Shown here: piece by piece, positions 3,047 to 32,443 of the stretch
How the letters are laid out: every line of letters begins with the position of its first letter
How positions within the stretch are numbered: position 1 is the stretch's first letter
DNA from: an uncultured Chloroflexia bacterium
Lineage (GTDB): Bacteria; Chloroflexota; Limnocylindria; Limnocylindrales; CSP1-4
Length of the DNA: 40,279 bases
NCBI GenBank assembly: GCA_963766735.1
Contig: CAVYBU010000009.1
Location: 1-40,279 of the forward strand
Reading direction: 5' to 3'
The notes under the pieces: generated by a model
Database searches by the model: none
The model's input: the letters and a program-made list of their open reading frames with translations, nothing else
What the model was told of the DNA's origin: nothing
Position numbers and translations under genes: made by a program

Positions 3047-3059
3047 GATCGTGGTGCCG

Positions 3060-4745: not shown

Positions 4746-4775
4746 CTCGCGAGGCCGGCGGATACCCGCCGCGGG

Positions 4776-6137: not shown

Positions 6138-6226
6138 GCTCCCCATCTCCCGTTGCGGCCCGCCGCCCGTGGCGCCGTCCCTGGCGGCGCCGAGTCGACA
6201 GCGCCATTGTGGGCGCCGCTCAGCCG

Positions 6227-7027: not shown

Positions 7028-7262
7028 CAGCGGAGTGTAGCCAGTGGTGACCCGGCGCCAACCGTGTTCGCGTACCTCTCCGGCGGCATCCCGCCTCCCG
7101 TGGCGAGCCGATCGCGTCGGCCGGACCGCGGGCCGTCGCCCGGCTGGGTCCGGCGCAAGCCCAATCCCCGGCCGCGTCCCTCACTCGTCGACTCGAAAAG
7201 ATGGCGGTCGCTACAGTAGCCAACGCACGGAGGCATCCTGCCGGTACTGAGGGCTACATCAA

Positions 7263-9458: not shown

Positions 9459-9571
9459 CGAGCGGGCGACCCCAGGGCGTTCTCCATGTCCACCCACTCG
9501 GCGACCGGGAGAGCGGCCTCGAAGGCCGTCATCAGGTCTGCCCCGATCAGGCCCCGGCCGCACATGCCGAC

Positions 9572-9774
9572 GCGCCAGCCCGCCGTCGCACCGTCCTTGA
9601 CCCCGTACCAGCACGGCTCGTGCCGGTAGTTGTAGTGGGTCCGGCTGATCACCCCGTAGGGCTTGACCCACACGATCGTCTGGCGCTGCCGAAGCCGATC
9701 CGCTCCAACCCCATCGCCACTGCCAGGACGTTCCGGTCCGCGTACCAGACGTAGGCGACCTCGAGGCTGGGCAC
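9572..9774 (-). pseudogene. internal fragment of a phage-type N4/N6 DNA methyltransferase, frameshifted
   Basis: LEVAYVWYADR...LERIGF / QTIVWVKP..VISRTHYNYRHEPCWYG; both ends missing. Confidence 0.75.
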
Positions 9775-9817
9775 GTTGCCCGCTCGGGGGAGCCACGGTC
9801 GGCGCGAGTTCGCGCTC

Positions 9818-9916
9818 TCACGCCAGCCGCCTCGCCGCGACAAGCCACTCATCCCGGCCCTCGATCGGGATCTCGTAGGTTGCCAACGCGCGCCCGACAC
9901 CTGTCGGGCGCGCCAC
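9818..9916 (-). pseudogene. orphan C-terminal tail spanning att site 1 (putative recombinase tail)
   Basis: VARPTGVGRALATYEIPIEGRDEWLVAARRLA*; homologous to the tail at 32327-32443; its stop overlaps a GTG reading VRARTRADRGSPERAT, like the HTH-A N-terminus. Confidence 0.6.
9888..9915 (+). repeat. att-like site 1: tRNA-Arg 3' end with perfect inverted arm
   Basis: GCGCGCCCGACA-CC-TGTCGGGCGCGC-CA; 12/12 dyad about CC; CCTGTCGGGCGCGCCA equals the 3' end of tRNA-Arg(CCG), e.g. E. coli argX. Confidence 0.85.
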
Positions 9917-10169
9917 CCTCCACCTTCGAATCGGTGGGTTTCCGCGCCCAGGTCCGCCACCCCTGTGCCAACGCGCCCGATGCGCCCAAGTCCGCCTCCC
10001 GCACGGATCGCGCGACCGACACCTTCGAGACCTGTGCGGCACGAGGGCGTGAGGACGGGCCGCCACTTCGTCTTCGGCCACCGAACCGCTTCCCGTGATG
10101 ACGACCCCGCACGTGAGCGCGGGCAGGTGGAGCATGAACCCGGGGGCCTGCGACTTCCGCCGCGACACA

Positions 10170-10202
10170 CAGGATCGCCCGGTCGGAGACCGGGCGATCC
10201 TG
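10170..10202 (-). terminator. stem-loop downstream of the gdh / Cys-rich protein operon
   Basis: perfect 15-bp stem CAGGATCGCCCGGTC-GGA-GACCGGGCGATCCTG. Confidence 0.7.
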
Positions 10203-10223
10203 ATGATGGAGAGAGGAGTGGAG

Positions 10224-10484
10224 CTACCGGACTGAGACTTCCTGTCCGACACGATCGGCGGCCACCGTGGGCTCGCCTGCCGCGATGGGCTCCACCAGGA
10301 ACGGCAGGCCGAGGTGGTCGACGCCGTCGTCCGCGAGATCCTGGTCATAGGTGCACATGCACGGTCCGCTGTGGGCGCAGCCGAAGCAGCAGTACGTCTC
10401 GTCCATGCGGTAGACGGGCCGGTCGATGAGCAGGGCGTCGCACGAGGCGCAGTAGCCACGCTGGGGTCCGTTGAAGATGCGCAT
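10224..10484 (-). CDS. small Cys-rich, metallothionein-like metal-binding protein
   Basis: RBS GGAGGA; CASC...YCCFGCAHSGPCMC. Confidence 0.7.
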   Translation of the reverse strand: MRIFNGPQRGYCASCDALLIDRPVYRMDETYCCFGCAHSGPCMCTYDQDLADDGVDHLGLPFLVEPIAAGEPTVAADRVGQEVSVR

Positions 10485-10516
10485 GAGATGTCCTCCGATG
10501 CTGGGTGTCCTGGACG

Positions 10517-11806
10517 TCAGGGGTAGATCCCGCGCAGCCGGCTCGCGTTCGCGACCCGTTCGACAGCGAGGCTGTGCGCTGCGAGGCGCGTTGAGATCCC
10601 CTCGGCAGCGGCGCGGTGCCAGACCGCCTCCGCGGCCGCGAGGACCTGGCGGCGAAGCCGGTCATTGACCTCGTCGCGCGTCCATGCGAGGGCCGCCCGG
10701 TTCTGCGCCCATTCGAAGTAGCTGACGATCACGCCACCGGCGTTGCACAGGATGTCGGGGATCACGGTGACGCCGTTCTCACTCAGGATGGGGTCGGCCG
10801 AGGGTTCGGTCGGCCCATTGGCTCCCTCGGCGAGGATCCGCGCGCGGATGTTCCCTGCGTTGCGGGCCGTGATCTGACCGTCGAGCGCGGCGAGCACCAG
10901 GACGTCCACGTCAAGCCCGAACAGGGTCTCGTTGTCGATGAGCCTCGTTCCGGGTGTCCCGGACACGCTGCCGTAGGCCCGGAACCGCCGGGCGAGGTCC
11001 GGGACGTCGAGGCCTTCCGGGTCGTACGCGCCTCCGCCGACGTCCGTGATAGCGACGACCCTCGCGCCTGCTTCGTGGAGCAGGCGGGCCGTGGCCTCGC
11101 CGACATTGCCGAAACCCTGTACGGCGACGCTGGCGCCTGCCATCTCCAGGCCGAGGCGGCGCGCAGCGTGCCCGATGGTGTACACGACGCCCTGTCCCGT
11201 CGCATCCGAGCGACCGACGGAGCCACCGAGGGACGGGGGCTTCCCGGTGACGACGCCCGGCACGGAATACCCCCGGTGCATCGAGACGGTGTCCATGATC
11301 CAGGCCATCACCTGGGCGTTCGTGCCCACGTCGGGTGCCGGGATGTCCGACTCAGGGCCGATGACATGCTCGATCTCGGTCGTGAAGCGTCGCGTGAGGC
11401 CCTCGAGCTCCTTGCCGCTCATGCTCGTCGGGTCGCAGGTGACGCCGCCCTTGGCACCGCCGAACGGCACATCGGCCAGCGCGCACTTCCAGGTCATCCA
11501 CATCGCGAGCGCGCGGACGTCGTCCAGGTCGGTCTGGGGATGGAAGCGGAGGCCCCCCTTCGCCGGTCCGCGCGCCACGTTGTGCTGGACGCGGTAGCCG
11601 GAGAACACCCGGACTGAGCCGTCGTCCATCTTCACCGGGAAGTTGACTGTGAGCTCGCGCTGCGGCACCCGAAGGACGGCGCGGAGGTCCGGCTCCAGCC
11701 CGAGGTGCTCGGTGGCGGCATCGAACTGCGTGAGCGCCGCGGCGAGGGCATTCTGCCCGGCGGTGCCGGGCGCTGCGGCGGGCGCCTCGGCAAGCGAAAT
11801 GGTCAT
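10517..11806 (-). CDS. gdhA: Glu/Leu/Phe/Val dehydrogenase (glutamate dehydrogenase)
   Basis: RGPAKGGLRF, MTWKCA, PFGGAKGG, DIPAPDVGT, QGFGNVG, EGANGP, NAGGVIVSYFEW. Confidence 0.95.
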   Translation of the reverse strand: MTISLAEAPAAAPGTAGQNALAAALTQFDAATEHLGLEPDLRAVLRVPQRELTVNFPVKMDDGSVRVFSGYRVQHNVARGPAKGGLRFHPQTDLDDVRALAMWMTWKCALADVPFGGAKGGVTCDPTSMSGKELEGLTRRFTTEIEHVIGPESDIPAPDVGTNAQVMAWIMDTVSMHRGYSVPGVVTGKPPSLGGSVGRSDATGQGVVYTIGHAARRLGLEMAGASVAVQGFGNVGEATARLLHEAGARVVAITDVGGGAYDPEGLDVPDLARRFRAYGSVSGTPGTRLIDNETLFGLDVDVLVLAALDGQITARNAGNIRARILAEGANGPTEPSADPILSENGVTVIPDILCNAGGVIVSYFEWAQNRAALAWTRDEVNDRLRRQVLAAAEAVWHRAAAEGISTRLAAHSLAVERVANASRLRGIYP

Positions 11807-11887
11807 GGATGGTCTCCAGGCGAGTGGGTGGCGTCACGAATGGCCTACAGGCTCGCCCGGGCCCGGGAACGTCGGCGGGGACCGGCA

Positions 11888-11962
11888 TGAACGCGGCGTG
11901 AACAATGGGCTCGAATGCATGAACGGGCTGTTCATGAAGCACCCATCGCGCCGGTCTATGCT
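11888..11962. promoter_or_regulatory. divergent promoter region with TGAAC repeats, a palindrome and a -10 box
   Basis: TGAAC at 11888, 11899 and 11920; CATGAAC-gggct-GTTCATG at 11918-11936; TATGCT at 11957-62, 6 nt before ATG 11969. Confidence 0.5.
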
Positions 11963-11968
11963 CTGCTC

Positions 11969-13014
11969 ATGCCGCCCCAGCCCGCGTCGGCGAAGTCCGC
12001 GTCGGCGAATTCCGCCTCGCTCCCGGTCCGCGATGCCTCGACCGTCGGCCCGTCGCCGTTGCTTCACGCCGCCCTCACGCTCGTTCCGCCCTCGACGACC
12101 GAATCTGAGCTCGAGAACCGGTTCGCCGCCGCCGGCGCGGATCTCCGGCCCCGGATCGCCGCCAGGCTCCTCGCAGACCTCGCCAACCTCGGGCTCGTCC
12201 GGGCAACGCAGCGGGGGAGTCGCGGCACCCGGTGGGTGGCGACGACGCTCGGCCTCCGGTACGTGGATGCCGGCCTGTACGGCGAGGCGAACATCCCGCT
12301 GGCGGAGCTGGAAGGCCTGCGGACGGACCTGCTGTCCACGATCGCCCACGAGCTCCGCACACCGCTCACGGCCGTCCGCACGAGCGCGGGCATCCTGCTC
12401 GAACCCTCGGCGCAGCCGACCGAGGACCAGCGCCGGACGCTGCTGGAGGCGATCGAGCGAAACGGGGAGCGGATGCAGCGCCTCGTGGGCGACATCCTTG
12501 AGCTGTCCCGCTTCCGGTCCGGGAGCGTAAGCCTCCAGCTCCGCCGCTTTGGCGCCGGGGCACTGGCCGACTCGGCGATCGCCGTGGTTGCGCCGCTCGC
12601 GGCGAAGCGAGGCCAGCGCATCGAGCGATCCCTCCCGGCGTCCCGTGACCATCGTGTCTACGGCGACCACCGGCGGCTGGAGCAGGCGCTGCTCAACCTG
12701 ATCTCCAACGCCCAGCGCGTCGCGCCCGATGGCGGGGTCGTCTCGGTCAGTGTGGAGGAGCATGGGTTGTTCACGAGCTGGAACGTCATCGACGACGGAC
12801 ACGGGATCTCCGAGGCTGACCAGGCCCAGCTCTTCGAGCGGTTCTTTGTCGGCCGTAATGACCGCTCCGGCCCGCGCGAGGGCGTAGGGCTGGGGCTGCC
12901 CACCGCCCTGGCGATCGCCCAGGCGCACGGCGGCACAATCGGCGTTCGGAGTGCGCTTGGGCGTGGCAGCACGTTCTCGCTGATCGTCCCGACCGCTGGG
13001 CCCGAGGACGAGTC

Positions 13015-13018
<4 letters not shown>
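11969..13018 (+). CDS. cytoplasmic sensor histidine kinase (HisKA + HATPase) with an unusual N-terminal domain
   Basis: IAHELRTPLT, LLNLISNA, DDGHGI, GVGLGL, HGGTI; no TM segments; start uncertain (11915 or 11969). Confidence 0.92.
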
Positions 13019-13734
<716 letters not shown>

Positions 13735-13925
13735 TCAGGTTGCTTCCGCGGGGGTCAAGTCCTCCCGCCTAGATCAATGGCCCCTCGACGTCCTGACTGC
13801 GGCATCCGCCTCTGGCTCCAGCCGGCTCGAGAGCCGCTCGCGCCTGGTCCTCGCAACAGCGGACCCAGTCGCTGTCGTGCCCACCAGCCGTTGCCATGTT
13901 GCGAGGCGGGTCGAGCTTGGCTGAC

Positions 13926-13953
13926 GCGCGCCCAACACCTGTCGGGCGCGCCA
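13926..13953 (+). repeat. att-like site 2: tRNA-Arg 3' end with inverted arm
   Basis: GCGCGCCCAACA-CC-TGTCGGGCGCGC-CA (11/12 dyad); the minus strand reads MARPTGVGRA. Confidence 0.85.
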
Positions 13954-14165
13954 TTGCAGCCTATTGGGCAGCGCCGGCGACGTCGGAAGAACCCGCGCAA
14001 TGGCTGATACTCGCCAATGACGACCACCGCTCCGCGCGTTTCGCCACGCTGCTCGACCGTCGCCTGTCTGGGACTCCTGCCACCGCCGGCGAGGCCAGGA
14101 ACGGCACGGCGTAGGGGAGCGCCCCGGACACCGCGCGACTTGATGGTGCGGCTGCTCCGCCGGCT

Positions 14166-14248
14166 ACCCTTGGATCTCCAGTTGACATTGAAGGGTTAGC
14201 GGCGCACGCTTGTCCCACCCCTTCATTCATACAGAGAGATTGAAGGGT
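14166..14248. promoter_or_regulatory. two tandem palindromic operators upstream of the Fic gene
   Basis: ACCCTT-N19-AAGGGT (14166-14196) and CCCCTT-N19-AAGGGT (14218-14248); TTGACA at 14182. Confidence 0.55.
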
Positions 14249-14264
14249 TGCAGCCGGAGGCCGT

Positions 14265-15461
14265 ATGCCGAGGACCGTCGAGCGGACCTGGGAAGGAAAT
14301 CCTGGCGCGATGGGCGGGCGCCGGGCGCGTGCCTCGTTCCGGTACCAGGCATTCGTCCCTGACGAAATCGCGGCGCTCAGCCCCGTGGTCCCGTTCGAGG
14401 TCGCCGATCTCTCGGCCGATGCCGAGGCGGCGATCCGGGCGCTCAACGATCGCGCCTCGGTAGGCGGCCTGGAGGCAATCGGCCCGCTGCTCCTGCGGTC
14501 GGAGGCCGTGGCGTCATCTCGGATCGAGGGCTACGACGTCTCCTCGCTCAACCTGGCCAAGGCGCTCATCGACCCTCGGGCAGCGCGAGGCAGCGCCAGG
14601 GTCGTCGCGGCGAACGTGTCCGCGATGGAGGAGGCGATCGCGACCGGCGACCGAACGGACCCGGTCGCCGTGGACAATCTGCTCGCGATCCACGCGGTGC
14701 TGATGGCGGGCGACGAGCGAGCGCGGCCCGGTCGCGTGCGCGAGGAGCAGAACTGGATCGGCGGCCGGCTCGGGAACCCGTCCGATGCCGCCTTCATCCC
14801 GCCGCCGGAGGACCTCGTCATGCCGCTGCTCGCGGACCTCGTCGCCTTCGTCGCCCGGGACGACCTCCCCGCGGTGGCGCAGGCGGCCGTCGCCCACGCC
14901 CAATTCGAGACCATCCACCCATTCATCGACGGCAACGGCCGCGTGGGCCGGGCGCTCGTGCACGTCGTCCTGCGTCGGCGCGGCGTCGCCGCTCGCTTCG
15001 TCCCGCCCGTGAGCATCGTCCTGGCAGCCCGCCCCACCGCCTACGTCGAGGGGCTGGTTGCGTTCCGGGAGGGGCACGTGGCGGACTGGATCGGCTCGTT
15101 CGCGACCTCCGCAGCCGGCGCGGCCCTGATGTCGATCGAGCTGGCGGACCAGGTGGCCGCCCTGCAGGCGACGTGGCGCGAGCGCGCGGGCAGGCCGCGG
15201 GCCGGATCCGCGGCGAGCAAGCTCATCGCGCTGCTGCCCGCTCTGCCCGTGCTTTCGGCGCCGACCGCCCGCGTGGCGATCGGTGTCAGCCAGCAGCAGA
15301 CGCTCGCGGCGCTCAAGTCGCTGGCCGAGGCCGGCGTCATCCGCCAGTTGAGCGAGGGGACGTACGACCGCCAGTACGCCGCGACCGAGCTGTTCGACCT
15401 GCTCGCGGCCTACGAGGAGGGGATCGTCGGCCCGGCGCGGAGCGCGCAGTCAGCGCGGTAG
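14265..15461 (+). CDS. Fic family protein with N-terminal inhibitory motif and C-terminal wHTH
   Basis: HPFIDGNGRVGR catalytic motif; SSRIEG; RBS GGAGG. Confidence 0.95.
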   Translation: MPRTVERTWEGNPGAMGGRRARASFRYQAFVPDEIAALSPVVPFEVADLSADAEAAIRALNDRASVGGLEAIGPLLLRSEAVASSRIEGYDVSSLNLAKALIDPRAARGSARVVAANVSAMEEAIATGDRTDPVAVDNLLAIHAVLMAGDERARPGRVREEQNWIGGRLGNPSDAAFIPPPEDLVMPLLADLVAFVARDDLPAVAQAAVAHAQFETIHPFIDGNGRVGRALVHVVLRRRGVAARFVPPVSIVLAARPTAYVEGLVAFREGHVADWIGSFATSAAGAALMSIELADQVAALQATWRERAGRPRAGSAASKLIALLPALPVLSAPTARVAIGVSQQQTLAALKSLAEAGVIRQLSEGTYDRQYAATELFDLLAAYEEGIVGPARSAQSAR

Positions 15462-15577
15462 GCCAGCCTGGGGTGCGCTTGCGGTCGGTCGCGTCTGTGG
15501 CCACGATCAGGCTCATCGCGGCACCTGAGCCGACGTGGGCGTACACGGGCGGACCTGGGCGAGGTCGCGGGGCAGGA

Positions 15578-15814
15578 TCAGCGCGCACGCGCCCCCGGGC
15601 CCGTTATGGCGGGCACTCCGGTGGCCGGCGTCGTTCGCGGGCGAAGCCGCAAGGGACGCCGATGGTGGGCGTCGCACCACCGGCGCGGCCTGCCCCGCCC
15701 GCCGAGGTACGGGAGCTCGGCACCGCAGGCCGGGCAGTGGCGCGCCGGTGCCAGACTCGCGCGGAGCGCCATCGTCGCGGACGTGGCCAGCGCCTCCAGG
15801 TCGTCAGCGATCAT
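15578..15814 (-). CDS. small zinc-ribbon protein, phage-like
   Basis: CPACGAELP...GRPRRWC; RBS-like GGGGGTGA. Confidence 0.5.
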   Translation of the reverse strand: MIADDLEALATSATMALRASLAPARHCPACGAELPYLGGRGRPRRWCDAHHRRPLRLRPRTTPATGVPAITGPGARAR

Positions 15815-15817
15815 GCA

Positions 15818-16576
15818 TCACCCCCTGGCGAAAACCCCCAAAAATGGCGAAACCCGGCCGCGTGCACACATAAGCGTCGGATAGTCGGCCGCGACCGCCT
15901 TCACGTTGTCGAGCATCGGACCGCAGATCGCGGTCTGCCAGAACGCGGGTGTCGCGAACGCGAGGACGAACGGCTGCTTGGCGGCGAGCGCATCTGCGAC
16001 CGACGTCTCGGAGAAGGCGGGGTTCGGCGCCTTGTCCGTGGACACCTTGGCGAGATCGCCGTCGACGTCGGCCGCGGTCGGCGTGTCGACCGACACCCCC
16101 AGTGCACCGATCGCCGGCGTGGATCCGGTCGCCGCGACATCGAAGTCGGCTCGGATCTGCTCACGCCGGCCGTCTGGGAACGAGGCCGTGAAGCGAGCGC
16201 CCCAGCGTCCGGCCTTGGGGAACTCGACGTCGGCCGCGTACAGGCCCTTCTGACCCTCGATCGCCCACAGGAATGTCGCGTCGCTCGTGAACGCGACCTG
16301 ATCGGGCGCAGCATCGACGTCGTACCACTCGGTGCCGACCGGCACGTCGGGTCCGGCGACCACGTTGTTGGCGCGATCGGTCAGCGAGAACAGGAAGCGG
16401 TTCTTGCCCGCGAGGATCTCCGATGACACGAAGATCGGCAGGATCTGGGGAGCGGCGGCCGCGGCCGATGCCGCGGGCGAGGCCACTGGCGAGGCAGCTG
16501 GGGTTGCCACGGATCCACCGCCACAGGCGGCCAGGGCGATCGACGCCATCGTCAGGACCAGGAGAAGACGACGCAA
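15818..16576 (-). pseudogene. 3'-truncated lipoprotein with thioredoxin-like domain
   Basis: lipobox IALAAC; VLAFATPAFWQTAICGP; protein-like sequence ends at about YPTL (~15870), followed by an unrelated tract. Confidence 0.65.
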
Positions 16577-16650
16577 CGGTGTTCCTCGGTGGGAAGGGGA
16601 CGCCTTGAACGGGCGCGGGATCGACGGGATGGTACGGCGCATCGGTAGGT

Positions 16651-17289
16651 TCAGTCCTCGTCCTCGTCCTCGCCGCGCCACGCCTCGAGCGCCTCGCGCC
16701 CGATGAAGAAGGTCATGCCAAGGGCGGCCAGCGGGTCGGCCCACCACCAGCCGAAGAGGGCGTTCGCGCTGATCCCGACGAGCAGGAAGAGCGACAGCCA
16801 GAAGCAGGCGTCAGTCTGGAACGCGTCGGCGGTCATCGCCCGGCTGCCCAGTGCGAGCCCGACGCTCCGCTTCTGCCGCGCCAGCCACCACATGACCGAC
16901 AGCGAGGCGATGGCGAGCAGGATCCCGACGAGCGACGGCTCGGGCCGCTCGTTCGCGAGGAGCGAGGTGATCGAGTCCCAGGCGATGTAGGCCGCGAGCA
17001 GGATGAGCGATCCGGCGACGAGCTTCTGCGCCCGTCGCTCCACGTGCTCGATCCGCTCCTCGTCATCCTCGTCGGCGTTCCGCTCGGCGCGGAGCCGCCA
17101 GATCATGACCGAACCCGACGCGGACTCGACGAAGCTGTCGATCCCGAAGCCCAGCAGGGCGACCGACCCTGATGCCATCGCCGCGGCGATCGCGATGACG
17201 CCCTCGACGATGTTCCAGCCGACCGTGAGGTACTCGAGCCGAAGGGCGCGGCGGAGGAGGGCCGGTCGAGTCGTCGCGGCGACGGTCAT
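16651..17289 (-). CDS. short CDF-type cation transporter (TM domain only)
   Basis: LEYLTVGWNIVEG, GSVALLGFGIDSFVE, MTADAFQT, GWWWADPLAA; ATG overlaps the upstream stop. Confidence 0.88.
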   Translation of the reverse strand: MTVAATTRPALLRRALRLEYLTVGWNIVEGVIAIAAAMASGSVALLGFGIDSFVESASGSVMIWRLRAERNADEDDEERIEHVERRAQKLVAGSLILLAAYIAWDSITSLLANERPEPSLVGILLAIASLSVMWWLARQKRSVGLALGSRAMTADAFQTDACFWLSLFLLVGISANALFGWWWADPLAALGMTFFIGREALEAWRGEDEDED

Positions 17290-18191
17290 GCGTGGCTCCG
17301 TTCTTCCAACCGCCGGCGGTCGGCGGTCTCGAGCTGGAAGGTCGAGTGCTCGATATCGAAGTCGTCCGACAGGCATTCGCAGAGCGCGTTGAGGGTCACA
17401 GCCGGATCTGCCCCGTCGGCGAGCACGACGTGGGCCGAGACCACGTTCATCCCCGAGGTGATCGTCCAGGCGTGGAGGTCATGGCAGTCGATCACGCCCG
17501 GCGCATCAAGGATGTGCTGGCGCACGTGGTCCATGTCGACCCCCTTGGGCGTGGCTTCCAGGAGCACGTTGGTGGCATCGCGCAGGAGCGAGAACGTGCG
17601 CGGCAGGATCAGCAGCCCGATCAGCACCGAGGCCACGATGTCCGCCCCGGTCCAGCCCGTCACCGCGATCACGACCGCGGCGACGATCACCGCGACCGAT
17701 CCCGCGAGGTCGCCCATGACCTCGAGGTAGGCGCCCCGCATGTTGAGGCTCTCCTTCTGTGCGTCGCGCAGGAGCAGCAGCGACACGAGGTTCGCCCCGA
17801 GGCCGACGAGCGCGAACGCGAGCATCGCGCCCGAGGCGATCTCCGCCGGCTCGGACAGCCGCCGCCACGCCTCGAACAGGACGAACGCCGCGATCCCGAA
17901 CAAGAGAAACGCGTTGGTCACCGCGGCAAGGATCTCGAGGCGGAGATAGCCGAAGGTGCGGCCGCTCGTGGGCGGGCGCTGCGCGAACCAGATCGCCGCG
18001 AGGGCGAGGGCGATTCCCACGACGTCGGTCAGGACGTGGCCGGCATCCGCGAGCAGGGCGAGGCTGTTGGTGACGACCGAGCCGATGACCTCGACGACGA
18101 GGATCGTGAGGCTGAGGGCCAGGACCGCGACCAGGCGCCCGCGGTGCCCGGCGGCGGCCGACCCGTGATCGTGGCCCATCAGAAGGGCCAT
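17286..18191 (-). CDS. czcD: CDF family Zn/Co/Cd efflux transporter (CzcD-like)
   Basis: SLALLADAGHVLTD, RTFGYLRLEILAA, LNMRGAYLEVMGD, HDLHAW, HSTFQLE. Confidence 0.93.
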   Translation of the reverse strand: MALLMGHDHGSAAAGHRGRLVAVLALSLTILVVEVIGSVVTNSLALLADAGHVLTDVVGIALALAAIWFAQRPPTSGRTFGYLRLEILAAVTNAFLLFGIAAFVLFEAWRRLSEPAEIASGAMLAFALVGLGANLVSLLLLRDAQKESLNMRGAYLEVMGDLAGSVAVIVAAVVIAVTGWTGADIVASVLIGLLILPRTFSLLRDATNVLLEATPKGVDMDHVRQHILDAPGVIDCHDLHAWTITSGMNVVSAHVVLADGADPAVTLNALCECLSDDFDIEHSTFQLETADRRRLEERSHA

Positions 18192-18213
18192 CCACCGGAG
18201 CCAGGAGCCCGTA

Positions 18214-18600
18214 TCACTGGCGCTCGGCGACGTGGGTCGCGGCGCTGGTCACGAGATCGCGCAGGTGGTCGTCCACGAGCCGGTACCAGGCGACCCGTCC
18301 GACCTTGCGGCGCTCCACGGCGCCGCGCTCGCGCAGAAACCGGAGCTGATGGGAGAGCGCGGACACGCTCATGCCGATGACGAGCGCAATGTCGCACACG
18401 CACAGCTCCCCGTCGCTGATCGCGAGCAGGTGCAGGATCCGGGCGCGTGACGGGTCGGCGAGCGTCCCGAAGAGCTCGGCGACCTCGCGCGCACCGTGCG
18501 CCCCGAGCGACCGCCCGAGCAGTGGCTCGATGACAGCGGGATGGCGACACTCGGTCGAGCAGGCCTCGGCATCGATGTCAGATCCAAACACTTGAGCCAT
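18214..18600 (-). CDS. ArsR/SmtB metalloregulator (CadC-like)
   Basis: LADPSRARIL, ELCVCDIA, SALSHQLRFL; N-terminal CSTEC. Confidence 0.93.
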   Translation of the reverse strand: MAQVFGSDIDAEACSTECRHPAVIEPLLGRSLGAHGAREVAELFGTLADPSRARILHLLAISDGELCVCDIALVIGMSVSALSHQLRFLRERGAVERRKVGRVAWYRLVDDHLRDLVTSAATHVAERQ

Positions 18601-18615
18601 GCCTCTCCTGCAGCC

Positions 18616-19677
18616 TCAGCGTAGCTTGTCGACGTCCACGAGGCCGTCGTGGCGGCTGCCGTCGAAGATCACGGTCGGGATCTTGCGCGTCCCGATGGTC
18701 TCTCGGACAACCACCTGGTTGGCCGCGATGATCGAGGCCACACGCTCCGAATCCGCCTCAGCCACGATCGCCTCGATGCCGGCCTCGTCGAGCCCGAACT
18801 CCCCGAGCCAGGCCTGCAAGAGCTCGGTGGCTTCCTCGGGCGTCGCCCGGTTGACGACGGTCTGCCACGGCTCGCCCGTCGGGTCGGAGCCGGACAGGAT
18901 CCGCTCCAGAAGCTGCCAGTCCAGTGGGACCTCGGCGCCGGCAACCGGATGGAGTCGCAGTGCCTCGAGGTAGCGCACGACGAGGCCGGAGTTCCGGAAC
19001 TTGGTGCCGTCCAGATCTGGGATCGGGTAGGCGATGTAGGCCAGGTTGTAGCGGTCGGCGAACCCGGCCTCACCGATGTTCGCGGCGAGCTGCGCGCAGA
19101 CCGAGCAGCCGGGATCGATGATCTCGAGGGCCGTGGGTCGGGCGGGGTCGAAGCCCGTCCGCCACGAGACGTTCGGGGGCAGGTACTCGGCCGCGTCCCA
19201 CGTCCGCAGGCGGTCGGGGATCGCGCCGATGGTCTCGGCGACATCGGAGACCTCGCCCCCGATGGCGCCCACGAAGTCCAGCGCGAGCACCTTGTCGAGG
19301 AAGGTGGCCTCGAGGGCACCGATGGAGCACGCCTGGGCGCCCAGCGCGCAGCCCTGCGCATTCGCCTTGTCGCAGGTCCCGTACACCCACAGGTTGACGC
19401 CACCCTTGGCCACCACGTACGCGCTCAGGATCGTGGTGACGATGATCAGCAACGCCGCGACCTCGATCGCGATGGCCGCCGGGCGGACGAGGCCGGGACG
19501 CCACGCGGCGACCGGCGCCAGCAGGTGGTCCTTGATGTCCTGGCTGAAGGTGGTGTCGCAGGGCCGGAGCGTGACCCGCCGCAGCGTGCAGCCCCAGGCG
19601 CGCCGGAGGTACCCGCGGTATCGCGCGGAGAATGCGCCCAGGACGAGGAGGACGAGGAACGCTGCGATGCAGAACAC
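18616..19677 (-). CDS. uncharacterised Cys-rich membrane protein with a C-terminal thioredoxin/DsbA-like domain
   Basis: two TM regions; WGCTLRRVTLRPCD, GTCDKANAQGCALGAQAC, IDPGCSVC, cis-Pro-like KIPT. Confidence 0.8.
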   Translation of the reverse strand: MFCIAAFLVLLVLGAFSARYRGYLRRAWGCTLRRVTLRPCDTTFSQDIKDHLLAPVAAWRPGLVRPAAIAIEVAALLIIVTTILSAYVVAKGGVNLWVYGTCDKANAQGCALGAQACSIGALEATFLDKVLALDFVGAIGGEVSDVAETIGAIPDRLRTWDAAEYLPPNVSWRTGFDPARPTALEIIDPGCSVCAQLAANIGEAGFADRYNLAYIAYPIPDLDGTKFRNSGLVVRYLEALRLHPVAGAEVPLDWQLLERILSGSDPTGEPWQTVVNRATPEEATELLQAWLGEFGLDEAGIEAIVAEADSERVASIIAANQVVVRETIGTRKIPTVIFDGSRHDGLVDVDKLR

Positions 19678-19692
19678 GGATCGATCGTCCCT

Positions 19693-20913
19693 CTAGCCCA
19701 GGCCCCGGACGAGCCGGTCCAGCGCGCCGACCGCGGCGTCGACGTCGGCAGTGGTGTTGTGGAGGCCCACCGAGAAGCGGAGCGGCGGCGGGAGCGCGAG
19801 ACGCTCGCGCAGCCAGTGGTGGGCGCAGAAGTAGCCGCTGCGGACCATGATCCCCTGCTTGGAGAGGAACACCGCGAGCCGGTGGGCGTCCTGCCGCTGC
19901 GCGTACAGGCTGACGATGGGGCTCGGCCCGGCGTTGAGGAGGGTGACGCCGGGGATCGCCGCCAGGCCCTCGAACAGGCGCGCGCCCAGCATTTCCACGT
20001 GCTCGGAAGGTGGGCGGCCGTCGATCCGCAGCCCGCCCAGCCAGCCCAATGCGGCGCGCAGGCCGACGATCTCCCCCCAGGCCTGGAGTCCGGGCTCGAG
20101 GCGCGTCCACGGCTCGTCGGCCAGGAGGTCGTAGTCGTCCTCCCGCACCTCGGACACCATGCCGCCGCCGATGAATCCCCCCTCGAGGCGGGTGAGGAGG
20201 TCCTGGCGCGCCACGACCACGCCGAGCGACGGCGCGTAGGCCTTGTGCCCCGAGAAGCAGATCGCGTCGGCGCCCGTGCCGTCCAGGAGGTCAACCGCGT
20301 GCGGTACGGCCTGGGCCGCATCGAGGATCACGATGCCGCCCCGCTCGTGCGTGTCCCGCACGAGGTCGGCGAGGTTGCCCAGGCGCGAGCCGTCGACGTT
20401 GGAGACCGCGTTGACGACGACCACGGCGCGCTCGAGCTGTGCGGGCAGATACGCGAGGGCGCCGTCCTTCGACCGATCCAGCACGAGGCGCTCGATGCCC
20501 AGCCGCCGTGCGGCGGTCATCGTCGGCAGGAACACCGAGTTGTGCTCGGTGTGGCTGATCACGACACGCCCGAACGTCGCCGACGGCAACTGCCCGAGCA
20601 GGAGGTTGAGCCCATACGTCGTGTTGAGCGTGAACGAGACAGCGTGCGTCCGGCGGGACAGGCCGAGGAGCTCGAGCACCGCGTTGCGGGCACCGTCCAC
20701 CTCCTCGTCCACCCGGCTGCCCCAGGCGTACTTCACCCGGCCCCCACAGGCGCCGAAGGCCGTGTAGTACTCAGTGAGCGCGTCGATGACGGGTCGCGGG
20801 CGCAGGCTCTGGCACGCGGCGTCGAGGTAGACGTCGTGGGCGTCGAGCCAGGCGAAACCGTCCGGGCGACCGTTTGTCTCGGGCTCGGGGGGCTGGCTTC
20901 GTCCGAACCGCAT
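19693..20913 (-). CDS. class V PLP-dependent enzyme, cysteine desulfurase (SufS/CsdA)-like
   Basis: YLDAACQSLRP, NTTYGLN, TEHNS, LDAAQ, FSGHK, RSGYFCAH; the start overlaps the DsbA stop (TGATG). Confidence 0.9.
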   Translation of the reverse strand: MRFGRSQPPEPETNGRPDGFAWLDAHDVYLDAACQSLRPRPVIDALTEYYTAFGACGGRVKYAWGSRVDEEVDGARNAVLELLGLSRRTHAVSFTLNTTYGLNLLLGQLPSATFGRVVISHTEHNSVFLPTMTAARRLGIERLVLDRSKDGALAYLPAQLERAVVVVNAVSNVDGSRLGNLADLVRDTHERGGIVILDAAQAVPHAVDLLDGTGADAICFSGHKAYAPSLGVVVARQDLLTRLEGGFIGGGMVSEVREDDYDLLADEPWTRLEPGLQAWGEIVGLRAALGWLGGLRIDGRPPSEHVEMLGARLFEGLAAIPGVTLLNAGPSPIVSLYAQRQDAHRLAVFLSKQGIMVRSGYFCAHHWLRERLALPPPLRFSVGLHNTTADVDAAVGALDRLVRGLG

Positions 20914-29369: not shown

Positions 29370-30387
29370 ATGTGGAGCCGAACGTTGACCGCACTGGCCC
29401 CCGCGATTGCGCTGCTGCTTGCGGCCTGTGGTTCCGGCACCGCGGGATCGACACCGGTGACCACGACGCCTCCCGCCACGGCCGCGGCAACGGCCGCACC
29501 CAGCCCGGCCACGCCTGCACCGGTAGCGGGGGACGAGCCGTTCGCGCTGCTGACCGACAGCGTCGTGTACCACGAGGACGACGCTGGGGCCTGGTCGATG
29601 GACGTCTTCTATCCCGACGCAGAGGGTCCGTGGCCGCTCGTGATCGTCTACAACGGCATGAGCACATCCACGGCCGCCGGGGAAGCCCGGGAGATCGCCG
29701 CGCGCGGTGCCGTTGCCGTTGCCCCGCAGTGGCTGAAGGTGAAGCCTCCGGAGTTGACTCTTGAGGACTACATCGACGGAGGGCTGTTCGACCGCGCTGC
29801 ATGCGCCGTGAACGCTGCGCAACACCTCGCTGCGGACTACGGCGCCGACCCGACGCGGACGACGGTCGCCGGCTTCTCCGCGGGTATGCACCCCACCGGA
29901 TGGGTCGGCCTGGGCGTCGTGCGCAACGACGTGTGCCAGACACCGCAGCTGTATCAGCCGGTGGGGCTGGTCATGGGCGACAGCCAGTTCCTCTTCTACG
30001 AGCAGGGGTGGGACAGCTCGCTTGCGGACCCCAAGTCACCGGCGGCCGACACCGTTGACCGCTTCGTCAATCCGGAGCGATGGGACGTCCCCGACAACCT
30101 TGCCGTCTATCTGTGGACGTCGGACTACCCCTACGGGCGAGACATCGAGAATTCCGCCGTCCGCGGAGTCCTGGATCCAGTCACGAGACACGACGGGCAC
30201 GCTGATCAATGATCTGACGATCCTCGAGGCATTCGACGACGAGTGGATCGACTGGATGGACAACGGCCTGCTCATGGAGATGCGCATGAAGGGGGCCGGC
30301 CTCGGCGTGATCCATGAGGCCGTCGGCGGCGAGCACGCCTACAGCTCACGGGTGTTCGATGCCATCGAATTGCTGATCAGCCGCTGA
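29370..30387 (+). CDS. lipoprotein, alpha/beta-hydrolase-like; frameshift near 30150
   Basis: lipobox LLLAAC; MDVFYP, DPTRTTVAGFSAG; C-terminal GGEH in the 30022-30387 frame. Confidence 0.75.
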
Positions 30388-30426
30388 CCCCAGCCGGTCC
30401 CACTCCCCGGCCGGCGTCGAGTCCGG

Positions 30427-30551
30427 CTAGGGCTCCAGGCTCGCCACCACCAGCCACCCCTCCGCCCGCCCGCTGTTGATCAGCTGCTCGGTGGTGAGGC
30501 CCGAGCGCGCTCGACGGTCCGCCATGTGGCGCTTCGCGGTGCTCGCCGGAC
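30427..30551 (-). pseudogene. 3' half of a second HTH-B copy
   Basis: STAKRHMADRRARSGLTTEQLINSGRAEGWLVV vs STAKRHLADLRARSGLTTEQLIYRGRAEGWLVV. Confidence 0.85.
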
Positions 30552-30571
30552 GCCAACCCCATGTGCTCCGT

Positions 30572-31924
30572 CTAATCCGTGACTTGACTCGAAAGCTCCT
30601 GGTGGACGTGCCGGTAGATGGCCAGGCGGTTGGCCTTGAACTTCGTCTTGAGATACAGGAGATAACGAACGCCTCCGCCACTCGTCTTTCGGTCGAGCGT
30701 GTGAACGTAGTCCCGAGCGATCTTGAGGCCACCCTGGCGGGCCAGCTCGAGTGCGATCCAGTCAGATGGGCTGGCCCATTGCTTGATTTCCTGGACGATC
30801 CGGCGGGCGACCAGAGTGTCGTCGGGTTCCGGAATGAGACCGTATCCGTAGACAGGGCGCCCGAGGATCGGGTCTCTACCAACAATCCAGATCGAGTCAT
30901 CCGGGATCTTGACTGCCATGCTGGCAATGCCGTCCGCCACGATGCGCTTCAAGAACCGCCGCATGGACTTCTGGACCCCCGCGCGAAGCGCGTTGATCCA
31001 GTTCGTGGCCATCTGGTAGACGGCCTTCGCCGGACCGCTGCCAATGTTGCGCCACCACTTCTCATTGTCGATCCCGATCTTCTTGGGCTTCCCCACCGCC
31101 TTGCCGAGTTCGCTGCGGGCACCCCGGGGGGAGCGGGGCGGTGTCAGACGATCTCGCCGGCCTCCTGGCGTGCTGCTGGTGTTGGGGGGGACCCCCACGC
31201 CCGGAGTTCTGGCTCCGGCACCGCGACGCGTTCGCGTCGTCCGCGTACCCGCCGCCCTACCCGACTTCTCCGTCACCAAGTAGGAGCCCCACCACTCGAT
31301 CATGTGGAACGGCGAGATGCCCTCGGGAATGCCGGCGAGTGACTCCGACGACCAGTGCGTTCCCACTGGCGCGGGCGGTGTCCCCACGGGCAGGCGCTTC
31401 CCCGCCGCGGCCTCTATCCGCCGGCCCATCTCAGCGTGCATCTCAACCAGTGTCGTGGCCACGGCCTGCTGGACCGTCACGCCGTACCTCTGGCCCTCGC
31501 CCCGCAAGAATGCGTCCTTCCTTGAGGCTGAGGCCACGAGATCCGCGTTGCTGAGCATCGGGATCAGGACTCGATCGGCGGCGTCCTTGCCCAGGATCCG
31601 CGGAAGGGCACGCCGGGCTGGCGTCGATCCGCCAGCTTGGCGCTGGGTCGTCCGGACGGATCCGACAGGTTGGCGCGTCGGAAGATCGGCGATGAGCCTC
31701 GCGACGACGGCGTTCCCGACGACCGCCTGCAGTCTGAGGATTGCGTCAGCGCCTAGCCGAAGCTCGCGTTGCCCGACGGGGCGCCTACCTGGCTCGGAGT
31801 CCGCCCGGGCAAGGTCAGCAATGGGCCCGGCAACCCCTGTTGACGCGTTTGGCCTACCCCCGGCAAGCCTCAGTGACGAGGATCCTCTGCCCCAGATGGG
31901 TGGCGTCCCTATCGCGCGGTCCAT
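30572..31924 (-). CDS. hypothetical protein with LQxxxGNxxVARL leader motif; putative toxin or effector
   Basis: AILRLQAVVGNAVVARL..TQR, then a Lys/Arg-rich C-terminal region; visibly less GC-biased than neighbours; start uncertain. Confidence 0.6.
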   Translation of the reverse strand: MDRAIGTPPIWGRGSSSLRLAGGRPNASTGVAGPIADLARADSEPGRRPVGQRELRLGADAILRLQAVVGNAVVARLIADLPTRQPVGSVRTTQRQAGGSTPARRALPRILGKDAADRVLIPMLSNADLVASASRKDAFLRGEGQRYGVTVQQAVATTLVEMHAEMGRRIEAAAGKRLPVGTPPAPVGTHWSSESLAGIPEGISPFHMIEWWGSYLVTEKSGRAAGTRTTRTRRGAGARTPGVGVPPNTSSTPGGRRDRLTPPRSPRGARSELGKAVGKPKKIGIDNEKWWRNIGSGPAKAVYQMATNWINALRAGVQKSMRRFLKRIVADGIASMAVKIPDDSIWIVGRDPILGRPVYGYGLIPEPDDTLVARRIVQEIKQWASPSDWIALELARQGGLKIARDYVHTLDRKTSGGGVRYLLYLKTKFKANRLAIYRHVHQELSSQVTD

Positions 31925-32326
31925 GACCCTCCAGCGATCACGGGCGCCCGTCGCGTGATGGCCGCCCGCCAGGCGCCAGGGGCACGCAGACTGCGTCAGC
32001 CGCACGAGTGCGGGGCGTCCAGGTGTGTACTCCGCTGAAGACTATGGTGCGTATTGTCCCCCCCCAGCAGGGGTCCAGCAACACGCGGTCGCCACATCTG
32101 CCCCGATGGTTGTCTCGTTGCCCTTTCGAGCAGTTGTGGACGTCTGCTCACTCCCCCTCCTCGTACGGCGAGGCTCGGTCGATGGGTCAACAGGAGCGCC
32201 GAGCGGCGCGCTCCGACGGCCAAGAGGCGAATGGATGCCACGGGGATCGGCGCACGGGCGGGTGGCCGGATGACCTCGCCGAGACGTGAAGCGACGCGCC
32301 GGCGTGTCGTTCGGCGCTTCGCGAGC

Positions 32327-32443
32327 TCAGTCAGCCTCCCGGAGCCGTCGCAGCCACTGGTCTCGCCCCTCAACCTTCACATGCACGCTTCCCCGGGTGC
32401 CTCCTTGGGCTGACGCTCGCCTGATACCTGTCGGGCGCGCCAG
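32327..32443 (-). pseudogene. orphan C-terminal tail spanning att site 3
   Basis: LARPTGIRRASAQ...VHVKVEGRDQWLRRLREAD*, homologous to 9818-9916. Confidence 0.6.
32415..32442 (+). repeat. att-like site 3: tRNA-Arg 3' end; probable right island boundary
   Basis: GCTCGCCTGATA-CC-TGTCGGGCGCGC-CA (9/12 dyad). Confidence 0.8.

Follow-up and report, generated by a model that had tools for sequence, protein, structure and literature searches.

Orphan recombinase tails beside copies of a tRNA-Arg(CCG) 3' end: probable junction scars of a divergent large serine recombinase clade with a putative attP inside its own gene

The window, by which we mean the whole stretch of 40,279 nucleotides that was analysed, carries blocks of accessory genes and three copies of one 16-mer, CCTGTCGGGCGCGCCA, all on the plus strand and without mismatch (Table 1). 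Matches at up to two mismatches would be expected 0.17 times by chance, and three were reached in 1 of 100 shuffles. Each site is a G+C-rich palindrome between genes: taken as inverted complement, the 12 bases preceding CC agree with the 12 to its right at 12, 11 and 9 of the 12 positions for sites 1, 2 and 3, respectively. The original prediction had reported both the single orientation and the inverted right arm, and both held when recounted. ARPTG is encoded on the minus strand across all three sites. The minus-strand reading is ARPTGVGRALATYEIPIEGRDEWLVAARRLA at site 1 and ARPTGIRRASAQGGTRGSVHVKVEGRDQWLRRLREAD at site 3, each closed by a stop codon, and the two have in common the motif [IV]EGRD[EQ]WL followed by seven residues and the stop; no EGRD-type tail was found in the minus-strand reading of site 2. 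The claim that two of the tails are homologous was thus sustained as regards motif and stop distance, but taken alone the site 3 tail matched a recombinase tail only weakly (tblastn, E 0.38). The DNA of site 3 beyond the palindrome had no match in the other 260 sampled genomes of the family, and its subfamily is unplaced.

Table 1. Features of the window, with positions numbered from its first letter
Feature	Position	Strand	Basis or content
Accessory block left of site 1	1..9817		Pfam: SulP/STAS permease, DUF1269, DUF2252, AI-2E-family transporter
Orphan large serine recombinase C-terminal tail, site 1	9818..9913	-	31 codons + stop
P half-site of putative attP, site 1	9876..9899		inverted tRNA 3' end + GCAACCT 17-23 bp from centre
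Core copy 1, tRNA-Arg(CCG) 3' end	9900..9915	+	exact 16-mer
Block between sites 1 and 2	9916..13913		Pfam
Small Cys-rich ORF	within 9916..13913
Glutamate dehydrogenase	10517-11806	-	Pfam
Histidine kinase	11915-13018	+	Pfam
Response regulator	13015-13734	+	Pfam
Degenerate P half-site, site 2	13914..13937		inner 12 bp 11/12; no EGRD tail
Core copy 2	13938..13953	+	exact 16-mer
Recombinase 3' end (P' arm), last ~27 nt	13954..13980	-	in-frame stop 13961-13963; remaining gene deleted
Island-like block between sites 2 and 3	13981..32326		Pfam: Fic, two CDF transporters, ArsR, class-V aminotransferase, DsbA-like, GDT1, Amidase_2+LysM, methyltransferase, small LuxR-type regulator, hemerythrin, ECF sigma factor, Kelch-repeat protein
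Module common to other islands and intact elements	22665..24305	-	nucleotide identity
Amidase_2+LysM gene	23104-23841	-	inside module 22665..24305
Diverged orphan tail, site 3	32327..32440	-	37 codons + stop; ends VEGRDQWL + 7 residues
Core copy 3	32427..32442	+	left arm 9/12; junction also at C24:6694

The block left of site 1 is probably the cargo of a decayed element. Five same-genus genomes gave no match to it above 77% identity, with one exception: positions 1-172 are matched at 94% by G036:C6:1-174, a stretch situated 1.6 kb away from an internal junction of tail, core and recombinase remnant. The block between sites 1 and 2 was matched as a whole by only one of the five, G123, at 79-80% identity. 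Within the third block, the shared module is 85-86% identical at the nucleotide level to two other places in the source assembly, C3:383115-384930, beside a tRNA-Pro, and C8:1102-1584, and Amidase_2(+LysM) genes also lie near the tail end of the intact elements of the genomes G188 and G223 described below. A tblastn of the window with a full-length relative found no recombinase body, as had been said of it before. It did find the site 1 tail, 72% identical to residues 479-510 of the full-length recombinase P0052 (E 1e-9). This tail forms the P arm of an attR-type or internal junction. It hardly differs from the tails of P0014 and P0031 or from the junction at the far end of the G223 element. 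At site 2, a stretch of 43 nt is 91% identical to C19:126961-127003, the sequence adjoining the tRNA on another contig of the assembly.

This tRNA-Arg(CCG), at C19:126901-126976, ends in the exact 16-mer, which confirmed the assignment made from the letters. The 3.6-Mb assembly holds five copies of the 16-mer: the tRNA, the three window sites and C24:6694. The last lies within a 14.6-kb stretch 97% identical to window positions 25728-40279 and is therefore the site 3 locus, as a second variant or copy. With so few copies the 16-mer is not a genome-wide REP, one of the three cases that had been named as refuting the prediction, none of which was borne out. We also weighed whether the palindromes might be REP-like repeats or intrinsic terminators that resemble a tRNA by chance. 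Their G+C-rich, intergenic character would suit such a reading, but the tRNA is itself among the five copies, all copies are exact at 16 of 16 positions and end at the tRNA CCA, and the flanks are homologous to recombinase coding sequence of hundreds of metagenome proteins. Many dispersed, unrelated copies would be expected of that class of repeat, which we rejected; we regard a chance resemblance as the least credible of the explanations considered.

The enzyme behind the tails could be traced from the tRNA. At C19:126960-127305, on the minus strand and adjoining the tRNA, lies a 115-residue frameshifted C-terminal piece of a large serine recombinase (LSR), matching residues ~370-484 at 71-96% identity with one frameshift. 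A 57-aa remnant used as query matched 449 of 534 candidate metagenome proteins, and several among the 120 matches listed are ~500-514 aa long and carry PF00239. The proposal that the tails terminate PF00239/PF07508 recombinases stood for the first domain, with 38.4 bits for P0052 and 45 bits for P0030 at a cut-off of 23.3, and not for the second, for which full-length proteins scored 14.8 and 19.9 bits, under the cut-off of 21.1. Across 43 sequences R93 and R96 do not vary and R21, S23 and Q27 scarcely do, and the residue that we take to be the nucleophile was assigned from the resolvase motif. C291, C293, H312 and C316, invariant or nearly so, make up a conserved Cys/His cluster. The full-length AlphaFold model (pLDDT 91.6) has long helices over 328-444, and Foldseek matched it to the SPbeta, phiC31, Bxb1 and LI integrases at probability 1.00 and E values from 1e-15 to 3e-8. 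The alignments to SPbeta, phiC31 and Bxb1 integrases (ranks 1-9) span 510-624 columns, that to the LI integrase fragment 337; identity to the solved integrases is only about 12-16%. These features identify the enzymes as LSRs with a resolvase-type catalytic domain, to which the model and the Cys/His cluster add a recombinase domain and a zinc ribbon with inserted coiled coil. The clade is a divergent, large and previously unnamed one.

Full-length relatives end in one of two ways, as ARPTG-FEPATFGSGGRRSIH, which reads into the antisense strand of the tRNA, or as ARPTG-VGRALATYEIPIEGRDEWLAAARRLA, a conserved tail that is present almost unchanged at site 1 of the window. Among the 120 matches listed, the antisense-tRNA form (FEP...) was present in 47, with one-letter variants in 4 more, and a tail of the type [IVL]xG[RA]x[EDQ]W in 46, ending in Ala in 42. 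AlphaFold predicts the native tail as a confident strand plus helix. It is under coding constraint: in codons 10-31 of 27 distinct tails, which are mutually related and similarity-picked, minor-allele sums by codon position were 30/23/81 and variable sites 10/9/18, so third positions dominate. The stop codon is invariant, per-site mean variation rises from 2.0 in the tail to 12.7 just past the stop, and BLAST matches to the P arm start mostly at the stop codon, where homology ends. When consensus half-sites were built for P (n=29) and P' (n=30), 20 of 24 positions matched about CC. The reconstructed attP is accordingly a dyad of ~50 bp about a central CC with ~24-bp arms, the serine-integrase geometry that had been anticipated from a dyad about a 2-bp core. 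CC at 9900-9901 marks the centre of the dyad as well as the point where attB/attP identity ends on the left, and we infer that it is the crossover dinucleotide.

Intact elements in related genomes bear on how the two tails arise. Among 30 LSR loci, 21 have a tRNA-Arg(CCG), which in 20 sits where the recombinase match ends and in L030 is 1.4 kb off; one more has a tRNA-Arg(TCG), six have a core without tRNA and two are cut by contig ends. In G223 the tRNA, core and intact LSR are followed after 13.3 kb by a tail and core, attL carrying the tRNA-read tail and attR the native one. In G188 the tRNA, core and LSR are followed after 8.7 kb by a tail, a core and the 3' end of a second recombinase, a tandem stack directly beside the tRNA with decayed older elements farther out. 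Recombinase remnants were also found at the tRNA in three (G095, G024, G034) of five genomes checked for an empty attB, and in G087 a further junction lies at a distance of 2.7 kb from the locus. G030 alone appeared empty, and its tRNA ends in ...GCGCTC without an encoded CCA. The heptamer GCGACCT lies at 11-17 on the tRNA side and its counterpart GCAACCT at 17-23 in attP. A spacing shift is known for serine integrases, and the offset may hint at one here.

Since the recombinase reads through the core and its tail lies at the far end, attP is part of the gene's 3' end and integration exchanges the C-terminus, so that the free and integrated forms encode different ends. Three points of the original prediction are thereby supported, namely the attP in the recombinase gene, the swap itself and the host tRNA followed by a convergent recombinase, of which C19 retains a remnant and relatives an intact copy. 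The repeats could also belong to ordinary tyrosine-integrase islands, with 16-bp att cores and serine recombinase fragments there by accident. Direct repeats of tRNA 3' ends are the usual mark of such islands, the source genome has five PF00589 matches, and in the available part of a Mycobacterium survey (PMC10654092) 16 of 23 Int-Y sites overlap tRNA/tmRNA genes, while none of six Int-S sites is so described there. None of the PF00589 matches, however, is on C9 (the contig of the window), C19 or C24. Moreover, the serine recombinase frame enters the tRNA directly at 20 of 30 loci, the far-end tail completes that very frame, and the dyad is centred on 2 bp with 24-bp arms. We hold such islands to be very improbable.

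We consider it highly probable that the 16-mers are junction scars of integrative elements and temperate phages whose divergent LSRs target the 3' end of tRNA-Arg(CCG) and swap their tail in doing so. The attP, as deduced from the half-sites, would be a ~50-bp dyad on CC inside the last ~90 bases of the recombinase gene. Its right arm, P', would be recombinase coding sequence that copies the last 14-16 bases of the tRNA, so that insertion would restore a complete tRNA; P, on the left, would be the inverted copy, followed by 22 further codons and the stop. Recombination at CC would let the recombinase read into the antisense tRNA and acquire a new 15-residue end, leaving the native 26-residue tail bodiless at the element's far end. 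Insertions that came later by the tRNA would push older elements outward and create internal junctions of tail, core and recombinase 3' end. In the source genome the recombinases would since have been deleted, with orphan tails (sites 1 and 3), the C19 remnant and cargo genes left over, and site 2 may be an internal junction that retained 27 nt of a recombinase 3' end. Searches of the source assembly with PF00239 and PF07508 gave no match and no intact LSR of this family is present in it, so nothing there can be active; the only other recombinase in the genome is 29% identical and cut by the start of C8.

The position of the window relative to the tRNA is a separate matter. The expected tRNA on its left was partly borne out: in the same-genus genome G036 the tRNA lies ~38 kb left of the homologue of positions 1-172, with cores in the same orientation, but in the source genome the tRNA is on a separate contig, and no exact end overlaps link C19, C9, C24, C8 and C3. 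The window would thus follow the tRNA, as we infer from G036. The anatomy of the sites could be as described and the three window sites still not be a stack, having come about by rearrangement between att copies, by use of secondary sites or by the transfer of a mosaic island as a whole. In G123 the block of glutamate dehydrogenase, kinase and regulator neighbours Fic without an att core, 0.5 Mb from tRNA-Arg, so that site 2 lies in a neighbourhood which exists elsewhere without it. Cores of relatives also occur at separate loci (C2, C3 and C9 in G188; 1.17-1.21 Mb, 1.30 Mb and 2.26 Mb in G123), and no recombinase remnant was found right of site 1, at the left edge of the second block. Against this stand the G036 homologue and tRNA on one contig with an internal junction between them, the single orientation of all window cores and the tandem stacks directly beside the tRNA in G188. 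For the window as a whole we rate an unstacked origin as rather unlikely; at site 2, comparison with G123 puts rearrangement or secondary insertion on a par with simple stacking. With canonical serine integrases attP recombines only with attB, and stacking at one tRNA would therefore need attL as a target. Contigs from public runs were partial and of low depth (0.39 of the sampled words were present in the best run), and over window positions 7000-17000, where the bin of site 1 was almost uncovered, they contained no joint between att cores, a result without bearing on excision. One contig (X1, record 7) runs across core copy 2 with identical sequence, and the match of another (X4, record 32) breaks off exactly at 13953, a weak hint.

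Site stacks are common in the sampled order. An LSR was found in 136 of 301 sampled genomes (135 of 258 in family f1, 0 of 42 in f2) and the P arm in 112 of 261 genomes of the family, frequently in multiple copies spaced 3-10 kb from each other. The unpublished genome G233 is counted in both tallies. The genomes are mutually related and were chosen for their similarity, so that the counts lack independence. A family recombinase is carried by small elements and also by a 41.7-kb IMG/VR contig with terminase genes, which starts within one recombinase gene and ends within another or the same one. Its ends do not overlap and recombinase residues 77-212 are missing; the contig may be a circle opened within the recombinase gene, or part of a stack.

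Unidirectional genome engineering relies largely on serine integrases, whose direction is commonly taken to depend only on the pairing of att sites and a separate directionality factor. With attP inside the integrase gene, the enzyme's C-terminus differs between the free and the integrated state, in a clade present in about half of the sampled genomes of one bacterial family, and if the tail matters for activity, this would be a one-protein switch. Tentatively, and with more doubt than confidence, we propose that the exchange is a built-in state switch and that the architecture is ancestral to a tRNA-targeting clade and not a local oddity. In the free element the full enzyme, with a strand-plus-helix tail completing the C-terminal DNA-binding domain, would permit attP x attB integration. 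After integration, the tRNA-derived tail would alter activity, site choice, directionality or half-life, and the prophage form could not simply repeat or reverse the reaction. Internal stack junctions might give the native tail back to the enzyme of the neighbouring element. The coding constraint on the tail, its predicted strand and helix and the prevalent terminal Ala are indirect evidence that the exchanged end controls stability or activity; that it affects stability is a guess on our part. For annotation, short 'hypothetical proteins' whose ends read ARPTG... could be explained, in their hundreds, as recombinase relics, which would also supply a marker of island boundaries in these genomes.

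The literature searched, mostly outside subscription journals and supplements, yielded neither a serine recombinase whose gene contains attP nor serine integrases with tRNA genes as targets that they rebuild in this manner. From the literature found, an att site in the integrase's own gene was previously described for archaeal tyrosine integrases, and an attP within a gene also for phage repressors. The closest relatives are the large serine integrases (phiC31, Bxb1, SPbeta, A118/LI), with which the present family shares the N-terminal resolvase catalytic domain, the overall solved fold, a Cys/His cluster followed by long helices and a simple ~50-bp attP with imperfect dyad and central dinucleotide. 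Unlike them, it appears to have attP within its own coding sequence, to target a tRNA gene whose 3' end it rebuilds with a 16-bp identity block, and to lose on integration a structured, conserved 26-residue tail past the crossover; its low identity to the solved members and its PF07508 scores under the cut-off also set it apart.

The available part of PMC3694055 describes mycobacteriophages BPs, Brujita and Charlie with attP in an ORF whose protein has different C-termini in the free and integrated states. The likeness of this integration-dependent immunity lies in the attP inside an ORF and the two C-termini; there the gene encodes a repressor, the integrase is a tyrosine one and a degradation tag is removed, whereas here the serine integrase itself would be altered. 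Archaeal 'suicidal' integrases of the SSV, pTN3 and pT26-2 types carry the recombination site within their own gene (PMC8371274), and the available part of that review states that such recombinases are exclusive to Archaea. Those are tyrosine recombinases that are split into two inactive halves, while here a bacterial serine recombinase would have its last 26 residues exchanged, its frame staying open for 15 more codons. Archaeal suicidal integrases also target tRNA genes. Membership in the SSV-type class (PF16795) was rejected, the enzyme being a serine recombinase with only 26 of ~510 residues exchanged. Tandem tRNA islands of tyrosine integrases, finally, resemble the present system in that the element brings a copy of the tRNA 3' end that makes the gene whole again, junctions are recognizable by direct repeats and decayed older elements lie farther from the tRNA, as in G188. 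They differ in the class of recombinase and in the internal junctions, which here are full attP-like palindromes that would restore the native tail of the next recombinase.

The observation made in the original prediction was confirmed and the core of its interpretation is supported: there is, with high probability, a clade of large serine integrases that target tRNA genes and whose attP lies inside their own 3' end, and the window keeps only scars of the clade's activity. As had been claimed, the 16-mer core CCTGTCGGGCGCGCCA occurred in three same-orientation copies (sites 1, 2 and 3; Table), all without mismatches. The 12 bases left of its CC matched the inverted complement of the 12 bases to the right at 12/12, 11/12 and 9/12 positions, respectively, and ARPTG could be read on the minus strand through every copy. 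At sites 1 and 3 this frame continued to [IV]EGRD[EQ]WL, followed by seven residues and a stop; minus-strand translation of site 2 gave a frame without this continuation. ARAGORN detected no tRNA in the window. The whole assembly (3.6 Mb, 35 contigs, 70% G+C, 94% completeness, contamination 4.2%), in which the window makes up all of contig C9, held five copies of the 16-mer, which is not the behavior of a genome-wide REP-like repeat. One copy forms exactly the last 16 bases of a tRNA-Arg(CCG) gene, 3 kb from the end of contig C19, and the proposed identity as the 3' end of this tRNA was thus correct. The fifth copy, on C24, lies inside 14.6 kb at 97% identity to the window and so represents site 3 again, as a further copy or a second variant.

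Att-related sites, gene blocks and accompanying features. Positions refer to the window unless a contig or locus is named; G000 is the window's assembly, other G numbers are relatives' genomes.
Feature	Position	Layout, content or remarks
Left of site 1		SulP permease, DUF1269, DUF2252, AI-2E-family transporter
Site 1	9900, + strand	tail, core; no recombinase remnant in following sequence
Half-site-like stretch	9960-9990	~60 bp right of core 1; TGTGCCAACGCGCCCGATGCG, like P half-site (…TTGCCAACGCGCGCCCGACA) with a 2-base gap
Between sites 1 and 2		glutamate dehydrogenase, histidine kinase, response regulator
Site 2	13938, + strand	degenerate P half-site, core, 27 nt of recombinase 3' end with in-frame stop
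Between sites 2 and 3		Fic, metal transporters, ArsR, desulfurase-like enzyme, DsbA-like, GDT1; further Amidase_2+LysM, methyltransferase, hemerythrin, ECF sigma factor, others
Site 3	32427, + strand	diverged tail, core, then hemerythrin gene
tRNA-Arg(CCG)	C19:126901-126976	ends in the 16-mer
Fifth 16-mer copy	C24:6694	
Near-identical region	25728-40279; G000:C24:1-14512	site 3 included; true duplication or two strains binned together
~330-bp unit	25457-25828, 26787-26908; G000 C8 (5 places), C19:128727-129062, C26:2631-2960	79-89% identity between copies; at least nine occurrences, chiefly in island-like regions; in the window, codes for a small protein that has a LuxR/GerE-like helix-turn-helix (translation read by eye)
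37-base G+C-rich sequence	29306-29342, 27132-27202	13 genome copies at <=4 mismatches, on C2, C3, C7, C8, C30 among others; may be a REP-like repeat or shared promoter/operator
Distant second serine recombinase	G000:C8:71-1042 (minus); G036:C6:15069-16674	in other islands; ~29-35% identical to P0052; in G036, core-like 16-mer (1 mismatch, opposite orientation) 0.4 kb away
tRNA-Arg(CCG), locus L096	G030:C7:769348-769372	ends …GCGCTC; no encoded CCA, no recombinase remnant after
Adenylyltransferase-like cargo, locus L041 (G223:C3)	11968-12861 of locus	streptomycin adenylyltransferase family match (PF04439, 132 bits) in the intact 13.3-kb element
Opposed cores, locus L104 (IMGVR_UViG_3300039412_001175)	11439 and 18663 of locus	single contig, 7 kb between the two cores, which face opposite ways; P arm and recombinase 3' end at each; segment between them could invert

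Right of the C19 tRNA, the minus strand encodes ...IYERITVAGPEIVGIRLTSAAYAHGLALALPEKVAM-ARPTG and runs on into the antisense of the tRNA; in this integrated state the frame, stop included, overlaps the tRNA gene by 65 nt. With the 57-residue C19 piece as query, 449 of 534 candidate proteins were matched. The 120 matches listed were 79-96% identical, and several of them were ~500-514 aa long with a PF00239 domain; source names were those of Pin-like site-specific recombinases and, for one matched protein, Candidatus Limnocylindrales. Two forms of ending were read in 13 fetched long sequences (430-514 aa), ...ARPTG-FEPATFGSGGRRSIH/R, which is the antisense reading of the tRNA, and ...ARPTG-VGRALATYEIPIEGRDEWLAAARRPA, the conserved tail, from which site 1 of the window differs in two or three places. 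The FEP... continuation was present in 47 of the 120 listed matches and one-letter variants of it in 4 more, an [IVL]xG[RA]x[EDQ]W tail in 46; the RPTG motif itself was absent from 10, and the last 13 ended otherwise, in most cases through frameshift or truncation. When three full-length proteins were compared with the genome by tblastn, the C19 remnant (residues ~370-484, one frameshift), the site-1 tail and a 29%-identical recombinase truncated where C8 begins were recovered; PF00239 and PF07508 profile searches of the genome returned nothing. The window therefore holds tails without bodies, as anticipated, and these tails do terminate PF00239 recombinases, full-length relatives carrying a near-identical site-1 tail.

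The enzymes behind the sites are large serine recombinases. Two full-length family members, P0052 and P0030, pass the PF00239 cut-off and lie slightly under that of PF07508; a PDB sequence search with the recombinase gave nothing useful. Across 43 aligned full-length relatives, which share 27-84% identity with P0052, R21, S23 and Q27 were nearly invariant, R93 and R96 invariant, and a C291/C293/H312/C316 cluster was conserved. The AlphaFold model built from this alignment (mean pLDDT 91.6) had full-length SPbeta, phiC31 and Bxb1 integrases and an LI integrase fragment as best Foldseek matches (E 1e-15 to 3e-8).

A dyad with two half-sites about a central dinucleotide is the attP layout of serine integrases, and this geometry, predicted for the present sites, was recovered in the family. 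Read outward from CC, the consensus of 29 distinct P arms (left half of attP, inverted copy plus tail) and that of 30 distinct P' arms (right half, on the recombinase coding side) agreed at 20 of 24 positions, namely the 12 inner bases, T15 and GCAACCT at 17-23. To the left of CC, the tRNA sequence (…TTCGAAT) differs from that of attP (…CCCGACA). Since the half-sites mirror about CC and tRNA and attP diverge to its left, CC marks the centre of the dyad and also the left end of the identical stretch, and from this attP-like layout we infer that crossover would occur there. The 14 identical bases right of CC are what a tRNA-targeting element must bring to rebuild the tRNA.

Of 301 sampled genomes of the order (the unpublished G233 included), 136 contained relatives of P0052, 135/258 in the window's family and 0/42 in the other family. 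In the 30 best recombinase loci, tRNA-Arg(CCG) was found 21 times, in 20 cases with core and tRNA 3' end where the recombinase match stops; in locus L030 it lay 1.4 kb away from the match. One further locus had tRNA-Arg(TCG), six had a core without tRNA and two were cut by contig ends. Three near-complete genomes illustrate the anatomy. G223 shows tRNA, core and an intact 500-aa recombinase in succession and, 13.3 kb on, a second core preceded by the tail ARPTGVGRALATYEIPIEGRDEWLAAARRLA and its stop, which is the tail stranded at the far end that the proposal called for. G188 has the same arrangement over 8.7 kb and, because another recombinase 3' end comes after the far junction, is a tandem stack. 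In G123, of the same genus and in one contig, the tRNA lies at 1.30 Mb, with four more cores at 1.17-1.21 Mb. A single open frame with the native tail resulted when the far-end arm was joined to the arm beside the tRNA. It follows that attP lies inside the recombinase gene and that integration swaps the C-terminus, 15 residues encoded by the tRNA taking the place of the final 26, as suspected from the window. If the G030 locus is an unoccupied site, the CCA in other genomes comes from the element.

Of 261 family genomes (G233 among them), 112 contained the site-1 P arm, often as multiple copies spaced 3-10 kb, and most matches started at query positions 16-19, the stop codon of the tail. We compared codons 10-31, outside the palindrome, of 27 distinct 31-codon tails from P-arm loci: variation by codon position was 30/23/81, with 10/9/18 variable sites of 22 each, which, in a set of mutually related sequences selected by similarity, is a pattern rather than a P-value test. 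The TGA stop was invariant in these tails, and per-site variation rose from 2.0 in the tail to 12.7 just past it. An exhaustive profile-free protein search gave 1721 proteins (E up to 0.001). Among 38 fetched representatives of >=460 aa, 14 had antisense-tRNA peptide ends (…GIEPAT, …GLEPPT, …GFEPPT; several different tRNAs) and at least 7, which were 34-53% identical to P0052, ended in …[IV]x[IV]xGRxEWL…[RS][ST]A; a terminal Ala was present in 42/46 canonical tails. The modelled tail forms a strand (489-493) and a helix (499-509), with pLDDT of 93 and 85 for the respective 10-residue blocks, and the ARPTG residues sit in a loose loop ahead of the strand. Given the codon variation, the jump at the stop, the tails of distant relatives and the model, the tail is conserved and coding, and probably folded.

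The G223 element carries a Prim-Pol/AAA_25 replication protein, an HNH nuclease, small DNA-binding proteins and an Amidase_2 protein, with Lnt-like and adenylyltransferase-like genes as cargo; Amidase_2+LysM is present in the G188 element. A 41.7-kb IMG/VR contig encodes small and large terminase subunits, a DNA methylase and a Prim-Pol/D5 primase, and has recombinase pieces at both ends, one with the native tail. Tailed temperate phages and small elements thus both use the integrase.

In the window, the stretch left of site 1 had no match above 77% identity in five same-genus genomes, except positions 1-172, which correspond to the start of G036:C6 at 94% identity. That contig has an internal junction of tail, core and 45-residue recombinase remnant 1.6 kb from the point homologous to the window start, a layout which suggests a decayed element of ~11.5 kb with the window start just inside it. 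To judge by its sequence, the half-site-like stretch next to core 1 may derive from an additional junction. Islands on C3 and C8 match the amidase region at 85-86% identity.

Accretion at one tRNA to the left of the window, the last element of the original prediction, was borne out in part. On G036:C6, tRNA-Arg and a recombinase stand 38 kb from the homologue of the window start, in the predicted orientation, and G188 demonstrates that stacks do exist beside the tRNA. In G123, however, the dehydrogenase/kinase/regulator block and the inverted Fic gene are adjacent, 0.5 Mb from the tRNA and devoid of core-like sequence at <=3 mismatches, and synteny with the window begins only at ~10295, right of site 1. 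To our knowledge, canonical serine integrases do not target attL. That the window sites were not simply stacked at one tRNA appears to us less likely than not. Contigs of four public runs, partial and of low depth, contained no joint between cores over window 7000-17000; in one of them the match breaks off precisely where core 2 ends, which hints weakly at a different right-hand flank.

Returning to the proposed clade, a Mycobacterium survey describes, in the part consulted, tRNA-overlapping sites as those of tyrosine integrases (PMC10654092). Passages of another paper state that attP sites often complete an interrupted gene and do not mention attP inside an integrase gene (PMC12884075). The next nearest system are the archaeal suicidal integrases, which likewise have the att site within the integrase's own gene; a review places such recombinases only in Archaea (PMC8371274). 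The nearest idea is integration-dependent immunity, where, according to excerpts of PMC3694055, integration removes a degradation tag; there attP lies in a repressor gene, whereas here it lies in the serine recombinase's own gene.
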